A DNA stretch of 64,000 bases from an uncultured Bacteroidota bacterium (GCA_963702215.1 OY969726.1:3288609-3352608); one strand, 5' to 3'. Shown: positions 44,109-52,310, counted from the first letter of the stretch. Translations and numbers: made by a program. The notes: generated by a model from the sequence alone, not told the origin.

Positions 44109-44394
44109 GTTCGTTTGAAAAAAGTGAAACCCTCTAAATAGAAGACCCGCGAAACGGCAAAAGGTAACAGCCTTTTCGAAGAATTATTCCCTGAAAATGA
44201 AGCAGCGTTCATGCCGCCCAGTGCCGGAGGCACGCAGTAGCCCCGAAGGGGGGAAGTACCCGCAGCCCAGAGCCTGCCCTCGACCCGATCGCGGGTGGAA
44301 CGAAGTGGAACCCTGGGTACGCAAAGCCATCATAACCCGTTAGCCCTGCAAGGGCGATGTACGCCGATTCAGTCCCGTTAGGGACGGCATATTC

Positions 44395-44567
44395 GTAGCC
44401 CAGTGCGTAAGCGCTGGGATTGGGATTGAAAAAAGATTCCATAGCTCCGTAGGAGCGATATATTCCCCGCGTGATAATATGCCGCTCCTACGGAGCTTGG
44501 GATTCTTTGGCTTTTCGCAACCCAGCGCTTACGCACTGGGCTACGAATATTGCACTCCTACGGAGCT
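44395..44567. repeat. large nested inverted repeat (~65-nt arms) immediately after the last small ORF of the island
   Basis: Arm 1 at 44395..44457 consists of block A (GTAGCCCAGTGCGTAAGCGCTGGG), a spacer, then block B (AGCTCCGTAGGAGCG). Arm 2 at 44483..44544 is its reverse complement, with blocks A and B perfect and the middle divergent. A third B-like copy lies at 44553..44567. Confidence 0.6.
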
Positions 44568-44693
44568 GGGATTCGTTCCCCCCACAATCCTGATTTCCTC
44601 CGCGCTTAAACCGTAAAGCTGATAGACGAGTGTATCGATCTCCGCACGCGCGCCCGCGATCTGTCGGGTGAGGAGGGTGCGATCAGACATGCA
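44541..44693 (-). other. 50-aa ORF that consists only of the conserved C-terminal tail of a Type II/IIG N6-adenine methyltransferase (remnant)
   Basis: MSDRTLLTRQIAGARAEIDTLVYQLYGLSAEEIRIVGGTNPSSVGVQYS. It is about 80% identical at the nucleotide level to the 3' end of the R-M gene at 45751..45860. Its ATG overlaps the stop of the 203-aa ORF (ATGTCTGA). Confidence 0.4.
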
Positions 44694-45294
44694 TGAGTTC
44701 TCGGAACTTTGCCTCGACCTCGTGCCTGGTCGCTGCAATCTGACTCTCCAATAAAAGCAGCGCCTGTTGCGAAGTCTTAACAATGTCCAGCTGGCTATTC
44801 GCTCCAACACCAACGCCATACAAAGCATTTTGGAGCGGCGCAAAGGCGGCATCAATTTCGGAACGAAGTTTGTCGATTTGCTCGCAGAGCGAATCATTCA
44901 GCCAAATTTTGTTCGATTCATATGAAGCAACGAAATCTTTCAGGGCGTGCAAGAAATCATCCGCCTTAGGCCATTTGCTTTCGTGAGCCTCACCGGGAAC
45001 ACGTATAAGGTCCCTTCCTTTGCCAAACACCTGCGACAACTTAGAATATAGTTCCTTAAATACAACACCCTGTTCCTCTCGTAATCGAGCCAACCGGATC
45101 TCGTCCCACTTGTTGTTTCGGGCTATTTCACCTTTCAATTTTTCCAGTTCTCGATTTGAAGCACTGGCTAATTCGTTTTTGTATTTTTCCAAACCTTTCT
45201 CGGCTACCACTTCAGCCCGCTTCTTCACATAAGCGGGTATTCCGATCACTATCACAGCGAGAAGCGCTATGTCGATAATGTTTGATATGCTCAT
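44683..45294 (-). CDS. hypothetical membrane-anchored coiled-coil protein (cassette gene in the R-M island)
   Basis: 203 aa. N-terminal TM helix IIDIALLAVIVIGIPAYV, then Lys/Glu-rich coiled-coil. Its ATG overlaps the stop of an upstream R-M tail fragment (ATGA). Confidence 0.45.
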   Translation of the reverse strand: MSISNIIDIALLAVIVIGIPAYVKKRAEVVAEKGLEKYKNELASASNRELEKLKGEIARNNKWDEIRLARLREEQGVVFKELYSKLSQVFGKGRDLIRVPGEAHESKWPKADDFLHALKDFVASYESNKIWLNDSLCEQIDKLRSEIDAAFAPLQNALYGVGVGANSQLDIVKTSQQALLLLESQIAATRHEVEAKFRELMHV

Positions 45295-45400
45295 GCTTTT
45301 CCCTCCACTATCCTAATTTCCTCCTCGCTCAAACCGTAAAGCTGGTAGACGAGATTATCGATCTCCGCGTCCACGCCCGCGATGTGGCGGGTGAGGATAA
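45291..45400 (-). repeat. second copy (~92% identical) of the R-M gene 3' tail, an in-frame remnant encoding ...LTRHIAGVDAEIDNLVYQLYGLSEEEIRIVEGKA*
   Basis: Aligns to 45751..45860, the true 3' end of the R-M gene. It is preceded on the - strand by a terminator hairpin. Confidence 0.6.
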
Positions 45401-45429
45401 TAAAAAGGGCATACAATGATGTATGCCCT
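45396..45429 (-). terminator. rho-independent terminator for the - strand
   Basis: Read on the - strand: AGGGCATACA-TCAT-TGTATGCCCT followed by TTTTTATTAT. This is a 10-bp stem plus a T-run, downstream of the small SD-led ORF. Confidence 0.6.
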
Positions 45430-45437
45430 AAGTGGTA

Positions 45438-45599
45438 TCAAGTTTTCTTGACCCATGTCGCTCCGTGCGCGTTAGCATCGCCATTCACATTACACGGAGG
45501 GAACGTTTCCCCTGACTTAATGTAGATGGTATGAGTAGTGTGTTTCGAACAGTAATAAGTACCGCTAGATTCACATTTACCTCCCGTAGATCCGGTCAT
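45438..45599 (-). CDS. small (53 aa) Cys-containing protein with a canonical Shine-Dalgarno sequence
   Basis: AAAGGAGGTGATTAA-ATG; MTGSTGGKCESSGTYYCSKHTTHTIYIKSGETFPPCNVNGDANAHGATWVKKT, stop TGA. Not in the ORF track because it is under 60 aa. It sits in an AT-rich stretch immediately downstream of the R-M gene. Confidence 0.5.
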   Translation of the reverse strand: MTGSTGGKCESSGTYYCSKHTTHTIYIKSGETFPPCNVNGDANAHGATWVKKT

Positions 45600-45750
45600 T
45601 TAATCACCTCCTTTCATTAGCAATTATTATCACTCATGTTCAGTGAGTGCTAATATATTAACTATGTTTGGAGCCAAGTGAATCCTCGAAAACACGGTTG
45701 TTTATCCACATAAATGATAACGACTTCCCGTTTTTCCACATTCTAAAAAA

Positions 45751-48700
45751 TCAACCCTCCATTATCCTAATTTCCTCCTCGCTCAAACCGTAAAGCTGGT
45801 AAACGAGTTTATCGATCTCCGCATCCACGCCCGCGATCTGGCGAGTGAGGAGGGTGCGATTCTGGCCATCGCTCATCTTTTTAAGTTGGTTATGCAGATC
45901 GATTTCCCTTTCAACGTATTTTTCCATCAGCTTTATCTGCTTCGTTGAAACATCTTTTGGTACGGGAATCTTTCGCAAATCGCCGACCGATAATCGCGGA
46001 AAGGCATTCGCTACCATCTTGTTCGAAATGTACGGGTAAATTCTTGAGATTAATGTGGAATCTAAAATTCCCACAAGATATTTCATTGAGTAGTCGGATT
46101 CGGGAAGTGGATTGATGTTGAGGATGGTCTTGTAATTACAATATGTATCCTCCGTGTACGTTGCTTGCAGTGCGTGGGGTTGCTTTCCCGATATTTCGCG
46201 AATCAGAATTCTTGGCCCTTGTAGCCAGTCCATCGTTCGGTAATCGTGAAGCCAGGGGCCGTACTTAATCCACTGGCCTCTCACCCTCTCAAGCTCATAG
46301 CGAGAAACGTCACTACCCGCAAGCTCTGGAAGATATTCGGAAGACAGCTTTTTATCGGCATGAAAAACTCTGTTCTCGATTTGTTGTTTTGTGTGCTTAG
46401 AACTATTGTATGCCTGGCATCCGAGCGAAGCACGCGCGACCGTTCCCAGCGGAATCGATTGCTTTAGGATTTGATCCGCGAGTTTTCCCATAGGATCCAT
46501 CCTTCTCGTCTCAATGATGTGTCCTTCGTTTTTAAACCAATCAATCTGCTTTGCGTGGTATTCTTGCCCGCTCGTAGGATCGGAATCGGCGTCGATAACA
46601 CGCACTTCGTGCGAATCGCTGGCTACTATTTTCGAAAGAAAGACCAGCGCCGTGTTTACGGTTGCGGACTCGAAAACGAATCCTTTGAATGTTACGAGTT
46701 CGTCTATCTGAGTCTTTTCAAGAATATACTTCCTTAAGGACTTGGTAAAGACCTGAGTAAGCCAAGGATTTGGAACGATAAATCCAAGCTTTCCTTCTGG
46801 CTTGAGCAGTTCTATTCCTCGTTCGATAAAAAGCTGAAATAGGTCTGCCTTGTATTCTGCTGTTCCGAAGTGTAATAAATATTTGGCGGTTCTAGCATCG
46901 AACAGGTCTTTACCTATAACCACATACGGCGGGTTCCCAATGACGACATCGAAGCCGCCGTTTCGCATAATATCGGGGAAGGCTTGCTTCCAGTCCATCG
47001 GATTTATTTTGGCGGTGTCCGGGGAATAACCACCCCCTGCCCCCTCCTTGAAAAGGAGGGGGTTGTTGTAGTAATCGGTTCCGATGAGGGAGTTGCCGCA
47101 GAGGATGTTCCGGTCGAGATCGGGGAGCAGTCGCTCGGCGGTGTCGTAGGCAATGCGCTGGGTTCCTCCGTCGCTCCCGCCGCTCTCTCCGCCTTCGAGG
47201 ACTTTGAGCATCAAATTCAGCTTCGCCACTTCCACCGCGTTCCTGTCAATATCGACGCCGTGAATGTGGTCGAGCAAGATGCGCTTCCGCTCGCGCGGGG
47301 AAAGGCGATAATCTTTTTTCGTGGGGTCGGAAGTGGGAATGCGGTCGAGAACTTTCTTTTTTGTCCAGGATTCCGGCTCATTGGCGAGATAGAATTTGAG
47401 ATACCAATCGAGTAAATACTGATACGCTCCGAGCAGGAAGGAACCGGAGCCGCAGGCGGGATCTAAAATTGTGGGTGTGGGACATGCTTTAGCTTGTCCC
47501 TTCTTATCTTTGGACCAAGCTAAAGCATGGTCCACACCCAGCATTTTTCCGACGGTATTCTTCACAATATAATCGACAATATAGCTCGGCGTGTAATAGA
47601 CGCCGCCGGCTTTTTTTACTTCGGGCTTTTCTTCGACGCGGGCGTTGCCGCCTTTCGTCAGCGTGATGACTTGTCCCAGGAACTGCTCATACACGTGGCC
47701 CAGAATATCCGAGGGAACGATATCGAATGCATACGGACTTTCGGGATAATAAAGATGCCTGATGATGTCGGTGAGCACTTTATCGTCAATGGCAAGTCGC
47801 GGGGTGAGCGCGTCGAATCCTTCGCGGCTCTTCTCTTTCCTGAAATGGAAGAGACCGGAATTGAAGCGGTCGTCGGCGGCGCGGAAACGGTTGAGGAGAT
47901 TCTGGTAAACAGAACCAACCACCCCCCGTCCCCCGCCTTGAAAAGGCGGGGGAGTTTTTGTTTTTTGGGTTCCGTCTATGAGATAGCGCAGCCTGGCGTC
48001 GAGGGCAAGGTTCCCATATTGCTCGATCTTTCGGTCCCTCGCAGATGCGGAGCATGATAATGCGGTCGAGCGTAATTTGCACGGCGCTGTTTAGCTCGGA
48101 TTCGGACAGCCCTTTGTTGCGGAGCGCGATATTTTCGGCAAGCTTCTTTCGCCAGGCGATCATATCGGCGAGGAACTGTTTATCGAAGGGCGTGGTGCCG
48201 CGCTTGCCTTTTGCCTGCGCGGCGTATTTATCGAAGCGTCCTTTCCAGACGGCTTCGCGGGAAAACGTTTCCACGAGCCAGTCCCATTTCTCTTCGTACT
48301 GTTCGAAGTTGAAAAATTCGATGCGGTCTTTATAGGGCGCGTCGGTGGGTTTGGGAACGGAAGTAGTTTGATAAACGGCGAATTCCTCGAAATCGGAAAG
48401 CAGTGAGATGGAAAGTCCGGCGCTCCAGGCGTAGCGTTTCAATTGATAGGCCGGCGCGACGTCCGTTGCGAGGTGAACTTTGGGCGCTTTGCATTCGAGA
48501 AAGAATTTCTTCTCGCTGCCCACGCGGAAGGTATAATCGGGAGCCTTCATTGCGCCTTCAATGCGAAGCGAATCCTCGTGGATGACCTCTTTGTAGGCTT
48601 CGGCGAGTCCGGCACGATTCGTCATATCCCATCCGAGTTCCCACCAGAAGGGATTGATAAATTCCTCCCGAAGCTGCGCTTCTTTGTATTGGGCGCTCTT

Positions 48701-48766
48701 ATAGGATTCGCGGTGATCGCGAAACCGCTCGACGAGATCCTGAATTGTGCGAGGAAACATGTACAA
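45751..48766 (-). CDS. Type IIG restriction-modification enzyme (MmeI/Eco57I-like): N-terminal endonuclease, gamma-class N6-adenine methyltransferase and C-terminal target-recognition region, split by a frameshift
   Basis: ORF 47786..48766 gives the N-terminal nuclease domain (FINPFWWELGWD...LDRIIMLRICE). In a -1 frame it continues as DRKIEQYGNLALDARLRYLIDG...VVGSVYQNLLNRFRAADDRFNSGLFHF into ORF 45751..47922 (motif I DPACGSGSFLLGAYQ, motif IV DVVIGNPPYV, conserved tail LVYQLYGLSEEEIRIMEG). There is an extra G in the GGG run near 48036. Confidence 0.8.
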
Positions 48767-49104
48767 AAATACGAAAACATTGAACCTGGATCACGCGAAT
48801 GATCGCTCATCCGCTGCGGATTGGATGGATTTTCGGGATTACTATCGGAAAAAACGAAGAGTTCCAGTCCAAGGGGAACTATTAGATACGTATCTTATGT
48901 TTGATATTATGGAAGGGTTGTATTCGTTAAATGATTCGTATCTTTCATGAAGAAAGGATTGTGATTCTTTGAGAAATAAATATTGGTTCATGAACACGCA
49001 TCCAACACACACTATAAAACATTTTGGGCTTCTTTCTAGCAGAATGAAAAAATCAAACGTGCTCATTATGGATTTTTCCGATTTTTCTTCACTGCCTTCC
49101 CAGT

Positions 49105-51926: not shown

Positions 51927-52094
51927 AAGTTCCCGTGGAAGTGAGTGCATGATTACTCATACACGATGAGATTATTTCAAATTTGAAAGCCTAATTCAAA
52001 ATCGCTGACCGGTCACGCGCGGAACGAAGGAATGCTGCATGAGAAGAGATTCCATGCAAGAGACGCGCCGAAGGGCGCGTCTCCAAGAATACTG

Positions 52095-52168
52095 CGGAGC
52101 GGACGGGACTCGAACCCGCGACCTCCTACGTGACAGGCAGGCGTTCTAACCAGCTGAACTACCGCTCC
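52095..52168 (-). tRNA. tRNA-Asp (anticodon GTC)
   Basis: The reverse complement reads GGAGCGGTAGTTCAGCTGGTTAGAACGCCTGCCTGTCACGTAGGAGGTCGCGGGTTCGAGTCCCGTCCGCTCCG. This is near-identical to bacterial tRNA-Asp, with anticodon loop CTGTCAC. Confidence 0.85.
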
Positions 52169-52237
52169 AGTACCAGATTGTGTCGATGGAAGCTCCTGCT
52201 TCCATCGGGGAAACAGTGGCGTCCCCTACACGCACTG

Positions 52238-52310
<73 letters not shown>

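Follow-up and report, generated by a model that had tools for sequence, protein, structure and literature searches.

An uncalled 53-codon gene with an extended Shine-Dalgarno sequence, encoding a putative zinc-ribbon-type protein, next to a Type IIG restriction-modification gene of a Bacteroidota-lineage bacterium

The DNA analysed here is a stretch of 64,000 nucleotides from an uncultured Bacteroidota bacterium (GCA_963702215.1 OY969726.1:3288609-3352608), referred to below as the window. A small gene with its own expression signals lies in it, directly downstream of a Type IIG restriction-modification (R-M) gene whose 3' end is present in three copies. The features of this locus are as follows.

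45751..48766, minus strand: Type IIG R-M gene with HSDR_N-like nuclease, Eco57I/N6_Mtase and TaqI_C regions (Pfam; PADLOC REase_MTase_IIG)
45755..45860, minus strand: tail C, the genuine 3' end of the R-M gene (...RTLLTRQIAGVDAEIDKLVYQLYGLSEEEIRIMEG*), from repeat comparison
45407..45754, minus strand: the whole cassette (leader, promoter, Shine-Dalgarno sequence, ORF and terminator), read as inserted, 348 nt, 40.5% GC, bounded by the repeat copies
45626..45653, minus strand: sigma-70-like promoter candidate, TTAGCA-16 nt-GATAAT, predicted by consensus scan with 9/12 matches
45603..45614, minus strand: extended Shine-Dalgarno (SD) sequence AAAGGAGGTGAT, from the sequence and a duplex dG of -16.2 kcal/mol
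45438..45599, minus strand: 53-codon gene for a YjzC-like Cys/His zinc-ribbon-type small protein (ORF and translation, homologues, AF2 model)
45397..45429, minus strand: intrinsic terminator, a 10-bp stem AGGGCATACA/TGTATGCCCT with a 4-nt loop, followed by TTTTTATTAT (scan and RNA fold)
45301..45406, minus strand: tail B, a relic R-M 3' end, 93.8% identical to tail C over 97 nt, frame preserved
44683..45294, minus strand: ORF203, an ORFan that has a hydrophobic segment at its N-terminus, between tails B and A
44578..44683, minus strand: tail A, the other relic, sharing 86.8% identity with tail C over 106 nt, frame preserved

The small ORF begins with an ATG at 45599-45597 and ends with a TGA at 45440-45438 on the minus strand, giving 53 codons. 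Its translation, MTGSTGGKCESSGTYYCSKHTTHTIYIKSGETFPPCNVNGDANAHGATWVKKT, is identical to the peptide of the original prediction, which had described this ORF exactly as we find it, though it gave no strand. An in-frame TAA abuts the ATG, so that no other start is possible and none lies upstream. The exact peptide is absent from a collection of 15 billion proteins in which the flanking proteins of the same 3.58-Mb NCBI/ENA contig are present. The gene was thus not called, and its earlier description as unannotated is probably right.

A word-index homologue search with the single peptide gave no match. Exhaustive comparison by phmmer (HMMER) against 1.84 billion representatives found 60 representative relatives at E<=1e-3, the best stand-alone ones (50-57 aa) being 53-59% identical to the small protein, and a profile search gave 114 matches, nearly all of them named 'hypothetical'. 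Positions T5, G6, C9, G13, Y15, C17, H20, G30, F33, P34, C36, H45 and W49 are near-invariant. AlphaFold2 with the family alignment returned an all-beta model with a mean pLDDT of 95.9, in which the 53 aa form one compact domain. Homologues of the peptide do exist, and the relatives, the conserved residues and the confident predicted fold bear out the proposal that this is a genuine protein-coding gene, overlooked by the gene call. Judged by homology, it is a new, uncalled member of an existing uncharacterised family.

The signals around the ORF suggest that it forms a transcription unit of its own. Within the spacer of the candidate promoter lies a palindrome, CACTCA-N7-TGAGTG (45649-45631), flanked by ATTAGCA/TGCTAAT, and the corresponding hairpin is seen in the RNA fold. 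A rho-independent terminator with a T-run (45429-45406) begins 8 nt past the stop codon. Promoter-like site, SD sequence, ORF and terminator together make a self-contained unit of about 250 nt. GC content is 33.5% in the leader and 40.5% in the cassette, compared with 53.8% in the window, and GC3 of the small gene is 0.44 against about 0.65. AT content within the islet is indeed highest where the original prediction placed the ORF, between the R-M gene and a terminator. The leader gave no match to a riboswitch or other known RNA.

The upstream R-M gene matches PADLOC REase_MTase_IIG with an E-value of 6.8e-97 over model positions 268-679 of 1011. Near 48030 its reading frame shifts by one base at a GGG run, where LRICEG gives way to DRKIEQYG, which splits the gene on the minus strand into a nuclease-side ORF of 326 aa (ORF326, 47786-48766) and a methylase/TRD ORF of 723 aa (ORF723, 45751-47922). 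The gene could be a pseudogene, or the shift could stem from phase variation of the tract or from an error in sequencing. The R-M frame also holds two copies (47923-47952 and 47033-47062) of a GC-rich palindrome of 30 nt, CCCCC(G/T)CCTTTTCAAGG(C/A)GGGGG with a GGGGG tail, of which there is none elsewhere in the window. Each copy adds exactly 10 codons (TPPPFQGGGRG and PLLFKEGAGGG), and they resemble in-frame insertions of small palindromic elements.

Three direct copies of the final ~100 nt of the R-M gene are present, all in frame (...LTRQIAG..AEID.LVYQLYGLS.EEIRI..G), with the small-gene cassette as cargo between tails C and B and ORF203 as cargo between tails B and A. The low GC of the cassette (40% versus 54%) and its location between two of the three copies mark an insertion or a replacement. 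This layout of tail, cargo, tail, cargo and tail resembles a cassette array, yet it is built on a coding 3' end. Folding of the tails as single-stranded DNA was no better than that of shuffled sequences on either strand (z from +0.25 to -0.64), and an interpretation of the tails as integron attC-like sites was rejected. The other R-M-linked loci show no such duplication of the tails, and an exact-pattern scan of metagenome contigs for R-M tail DNA gave 0 matches, with neither an empty site nor a donor found.

The other cargo, ORF203, has an ATG that overlaps the stop codon of tail B (ATGA). Its only match among 5.8 billion protein clusters is itself; Pfam and PADLOC give no match and PHROG no convincing one. 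Directly adjoining relic tail A on its far side, at 44371-44567, we observed a near-perfect hairpin of ~170 nt (RNA dG -128 kcal/mol, z -14.8) made of two inverted copies, which match Acido-Lenti-1 RNA (RF01687) at 34.7 and 27.7 bits, under the threshold of 37. It may be a MITE-like element or a pair of structured RNAs. On the other side, an AT-rich intergenic stretch of 338 nt (48767-49104, 37% GC) between the start of the R-M gene and rarA/mgsA marks the other edge of this low-GC islet of ~5 kb, and genes for tRNA-Asp and tRNA-Ala (52094-52310) follow 3 kb beyond it.

The original prediction had suggested, from its Cys and His residues, that the small protein could be metal-binding or zinc-ribbon-like. 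The two Cys/His pairs expected of a zinc ribbon are present, since C17-x2-H20 and C36...H45 are both nearly invariant. The CxxH pair plus a Cys and a distal His occurs in 109 small members, and relatives without the distal His have CxxC as a second knuckle instead (P0124, P0152, P0055, L030, L034); in some relatives, CxxC knuckles stand in for the pairs C17-x2-H20 and C36...H45. A further conserved cysteine, C9, lies outside the proposed knuckles. It is lost in some members without loss of the other Cys/His, so the likely ligands are C17, H20, C36 and H45. We infer from this pattern of conservation and substitution, which speaks for the suggested metal site, that the protein most likely binds one Zn2+ via two knuckles, C17-x2-H20 and C36...H45. 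Searches of solved structures by sequence and by fold gave no significant match, and the zinc-ribbon assignment therefore rests on the sequence pattern. Among the closest known systems are zinc-ribbon or rubredoxin-like knuckle domains such as ribosomal protein L33, the N-terminal zinc finger of MCM and the C-terminal domain of rubrerythrin.

The nearest named family is Pfam PF14168, YjzC-like, with which residues 21-51 of the small protein align at model positions 31-55 of 55 with 17.4 bits (E 0.0055); this score is below the gathering score of 25. Among aligned relatives, 15/32 match PF14168 weakly at E<0.1, with a best value of 6.9e-05, and roughly 20/114 of the profile matches carry a precomputed PF14168 label. 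The top match of a Foldseek search of BFVD was also a 'YjzC-like protein' (A0A8S5MH11), although a non-significant one (E 0.87, probability 0.66, TMq 0.55). PF14168 proteins, named after Bacillus subtilis YjzC, are likewise stand-alone proteins of about 50-60 aa and align to the C-terminal half of the small protein. The subfamily studied here differs from them in its conserved Cys/His set of C9, C17, H20, C36 and H45. B. subtilis YjzC is not known to have a set of this type. No functional study of YjzC was found in the literature, and no NCBIfam model covers the subfamily. PADLOC has no match for the small protein or for a homologue, and PHROG has none for the protein of the window. Relatives of 130-233 aa combine N-terminal hydrophobic, probably membrane-spanning segments with one or two copies of the domain at the C-terminus. 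By these comparisons, the small protein belongs to a widespread family that is still uncharacterised and borders on Pfam YjzC-like.

Loci of relatives were collected from a genome scan (27 loci, with a query alignment of 12 closer sequences) and a metagenome scan (51 loci), and all-against-all clustering of neighbours reduced 76 loci to 67 non-redundant groups. The relatives are chromosomal and come overwhelmingly from MAGs of Bacteroidota, Ignavibacteriae, Spirochaetota and Acidobacteriota. Where a host is named, it is mostly one of the Bacteroidota (Cytophagales, Flavobacteriales, Bacteroidales), with Ignavibacteriae, Spirochaetota and some others also represented. The family was found 0 times in 50,697 phage records and 0 times in 72,556 plasmids, with one occurrence in 2.9 M IMG/VR contigs. 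An origin from a phage or plasmid was rejected on these counts and on the lack of a PHROG match. The original prediction had named Firmicutes-like or phage DNA as a possible donor, and this part of it is not supported by the hosts of the relatives and their near-absence from phage sets.

Among 42 non-redundant loci whose upstream flank is 3 kb or longer, about 12 have the small gene downstream of a Type IIG R-M or TIR gene, and about 30 show no recognised defence neighbour. The rate of 12/42 is far above that of a random chromosomal position and is an association, not a proof of function. A Type IIG R-M gene (Eco57I/TaqI_C) is upstream on the same strand in L036, L048, L049 and L052/53, in the same layout as in the window, and another locus (L055) has an R-M tail at its start. 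In 8 loci, the upstream side holds genes for a TIR protein (PADLOC PDC-S66/ThsB-like), a TPR-histidine kinase and a LytTR regulator, and DUF4236, DUF5763, Excalibur, HNH and DUF4407 genes lie downstream of the small gene. An Ignavibacteriae locus (L001) has a YafQ toxin and an N6_N4 methylase nearby.

Cytophagales and Flavobacteriales have a conserved cluster in common (L002, L006, L008, L011, L012, L016; about -4 kb to +4 kb around the small gene), which reads TPR-HisKA_2 kinase, LytTR, TIR (PDC-S66-like), small protein, DUF4236, DUF5763, Excalibur, HNH and DUF4407; a further locus (L010) has the kinase and regulator in common with this cluster and no TIR gene. On a marine contig (L052/L053, 84-5166), a Type IIG R-M gene and then a SPARTA pair stand directly upstream of a pair formed by a 130-aa protein and the small protein. 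The SPARTA genes in L052 encode TIR-APAZ and a short pAgo, with PADLOC E-values of 1e-146 and 1e-198.

This ~130-aa protein is encoded directly upstream of the small gene on the same strand in 13 loci, which form 11 non-redundant groups. It occurs, for example, at 5453-5833 in L004, 5476-5874 in L049 and 5457-5843 in L015, besides 10 other loci, with the motif KLTVHKSGKLGFSKSA...ISKAGDYYYIKAK, and it has no Pfam and no PADLOC match. The two proteins may form a module. In the window there is neither a 130-aa partner nor a second copy of the family, and the usual neighbours of the family are absent. Because the partner is missing, the small gene of the window may be the orphaned half of such a module; many relatives are likewise solo genes without the 130-aa partner.

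The proposal that the small gene is of foreign origin, which the original prediction had called plausible, gains from a GC content below that of the window, from the sigma-70-like promoter, from the duplicated R-M 3' ends on either side and from the lack of the neighbours usual for the family. Judged by these features, the small gene is probably foreign.

The SD sequence of the small gene consists of AAAGGAGGTGA at 45614-45604 plus T45603, which together are perfectly complementary, over 12 nt, to the canonical 16S 3' tail. The original prediction was right about the SD sequence and slightly off about its spacing: the gap between the 11-mer and the ATG is 4 nt (TTAA), not 5, which puts the GGAGG core 7 nt from the ATG. 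This agrees with SD-led initiation, for which a purine-rich complement of the 16S tail is expected 5-10 nt upstream of the start. The duplex with the canonical anti-SD tail is predicted at -16.2 kcal/mol, compared with a median of -1.7 and a best value of -9.8 kcal/mol at the first starts of 44 long ORFs in the window, and 0/4000 random 18-mers from the window match it. A deliberately generous motif test, applied to every start within the first 40 codons, credits at most 5 of ~46 long ORFs with an SD-like motif of any kind. The small gene thus has by far the strongest ribosome-binding site in an SD-poor window, in line with the contrast that the original prediction had drawn with its SD-less neighbours, and within these 64 kb SD motifs are not common.

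The octamer AAGGAGGT alone is not rare in itself, with 2 occurrences in 64 kb against 1.2 expected. The other occurrence was considered as a sign of a second SD-led small gene, for example rpsU, and was rejected because it lies within a phosphodiesterase-like gene, in antisense orientation. Next in strength among the SD-like sites of the window, at -9.8 kcal/mol, is GGAGGG, contributed by tail B, in front of the start of ORF203.

Among relatives, no SD sequence precedes any Bacteroidota copy. SD sequences are present in Spirochaetota relatives (AAGGAG, AAGGAGG) and in SD-rich contigs, and one relative (L030) has the SD sequence AAAGGAGGTG. The relative in an Ignavibacteriae MAG has GGAGG upstream, though just 1/6 of its neighbours has an SD sequence. 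Across the compared loci the presence of an SD sequence is seen to track the habit of the host, and this favours reading the SD sequence in the window as a trait passed on by a donor that uses SD sequences. On this comparison it is most likely a legacy of an SD-using donor lineage.

The host itself belongs to the Bacteroidota lineage, as a T9SS-sorted protein is encoded next to the small-gene region, and its Kbl protein falls into a 90%-identity cluster with a protein from a Candidatus Kapabacteria MAG. Ribosomes of the class Bacteroidia are SD-blind because the anti-SD is sequestered by bS21, bS18 and bS6 (PMC7797042, PMC9976891, PMC13000453), and such sequestration has so far been demonstrated only in Bacteroidia (PMC7797042). 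The window contains no rRNA gene, and the 16S 3' end and the genes for bS21, bS18 and bS6 are not in it. If host ribosomes are SD-blind as in Bacteroidia, the SD sequence of the small gene may not aid its translation (PMC7797042, PMC13000453).

Our preferred reading, which we hold with moderate confidence, is that the locus carries an uncalled gene for an all-beta protein of 53 aa that binds one Zn2+, that its own transcription unit was acquired by horizontal transfer into or with the Type IIG locus, that its SD sequence comes from the donor, and that the product would act as a zinc-ribbon adaptor or regulator in immunity islands. The unit of sigma-70-like promoter, 12-nt SD sequence, ORF and terminator would have arrived horizontally, either into the R-M locus or together with it, and would presumably be expressed in its present host. 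The three direct copies of the R-M tail would then be scars of repeated recombination events at a 3' end that is conserved among Type IIG genes. Two candidate routes are replacement of R-M alleles and Campbell-type single crossovers of tail-bearing DNA, either of which would leave relic tails and trap short cargo. As far as the arrangement of repeats can tell, successive recombination at Type IIG 3' ends is the simplest reading of the tails. The protein itself would bind a partner protein or nucleic acid and have no catalysis of its own. Its genomic company elsewhere suggests that it is most likely a zinc-ribbon adaptor or regulator in islands of immunity or conflict genes.

Compact autonomous units of promoter, ORF and terminator with deviant GC beside immunity genes are also typical of the accessory small genes of defence islands and of phage 'morons'. 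The small gene differs from the latter in not being phage-borne, and from known accessory defence genes in that its product matches no known defence or anti-defence family.

The strongest competitor, which we consider unlikely but worth serious attention, is that the gene is intact and idle. It would have arrived with foreign DNA and lost its ~130-aa partner, and its SD sequence would be a fossil of the donor that SD-blind ribosomes cannot use, resulting in little or no translation. The absence of the usual partner and neighbours, the frameshift that splits the adjacent R-M gene and the graveyard look of the locus, with an ORFan and two relic R-M tails, would all fit this account, as would the SD-poor window and the disregard of Bacteroidia ribosomes for SD sequences (PMC7797042, PMC9976891). 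However, the ORF, conserved residues, promoter-like site, SD sequence and terminator are all intact, and many relatives also stand alone without the 130-aa protein. SD-blindness has moreover been demonstrated for the class Bacteroidia only and not for Kapabacteria or Ignavibacteria, and the Ignavibacteriae relative also has GGAGG in an SD-poor locus.

Another possibility, which we regard as improbable, is that the 12-nt SD sequence selects a sub-population of ribosomes with an exposed anti-SD, for example bS21-free ones, so that the protein would be made only in particular physiological states. A precedent is found in Flavobacterium johnsoniae, where rpsU is the single gene with a strong SD sequence and is preferentially translated by ribosomes lacking bS21 (PMC9976891, PMC13000453). 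Like rpsU (bS21) of Flavobacteriales, the small gene is short and has an extended SD sequence in an otherwise SD-lacking genome of the Bacteroidota lineage (PMC9976891, PMC13000453). Unlike rpsU, it encodes an unrelated protein, sits in an islet that was apparently acquired horizontally, and has an SD sequence that is not conserved across the Bacteroidota members of its family. The position of this SD sequence as an extreme outlier in the window, and the GGAGG of the Ignavibacteriae homologue against 1/6 of its neighbours, would agree with selective translation. Yet sequestration of the anti-SD is demonstrated for Bacteroidia and the host is related to Kapabacteria, the SD-less Bacteroidota homologues argue that the SD sequence is not a trait of the family, and inheritance from a donor is a simpler account of it.

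A broader version of this idea, on which we would put equally little weight, is that the small protein forms the conserved centre of a previously undescribed module associated with immunity, with or without the ~130-aa partner, downstream of Type IIG R-M, TIR or SPARTA genes, and that the 12-nt SD sequence gates its translation to ribosomes with an exposed anti-SD. If true, this would be the second natural case, after rpsU, of SD-based specialised translation in the phylum.

Small size and conserved cysteines could also point to a secreted peptide or a RiPP or bacteriocin precursor, in which the cysteines would be sites of modification or disulfide formation and the LytTR two-component systems of Cytophagales relatives would regulate production, given that a TPR-histidine kinase and a LytTR regulator are upstream in 8 loci. 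We consider this very unlikely. The peptide shows neither a leader nor a cleavage motif, its surroundings lack any conserved gene for a modification enzyme or transporter, and all 53 aa are predicted to fold as a single compact domain with very high confidence. Swapping of His and Cys suits metal ligation, and the domain is also found once or twice at the C-terminus of membrane-anchored proteins. Finally, a chance open frame with a fortuitous SD-like string in an AT-rich non-coding spacer, for which one could cite the single AAGGAGGT expected by chance in 64 kb, the empty word-index search and the missing gene call, has next to no probability and is in effect already refuted by the homologue set, 60 and 114 relatives with conserved Cys/His/Trp, along with the pLDDT of 95.9 and a terminator that sits exactly after the stop.

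The finding adds an overlooked gene to the annotation and delimits, within an uncharacterised small-protein family, a Cys/His sub-branch that has more than 100 members and a confident predicted fold and that current Pfam and NCBIfam models miss. The recurrent siting of this family by Type IIG, TIR and SPARTA genes, together with the conserved ~130-aa partner, makes it a candidate accessory component of bacterial immunity. The triplicated 3' end of the R-M gene suggests that a conserved gene terminus can serve as a recombination anchor at which short cargo accumulates. An extreme SD sequence in an SD-poor genome of the Bacteroidota lineage may also prove useful as a natural reporter of whether anti-SD sequestration reaches Kapabacteria and Ignavibacteria.
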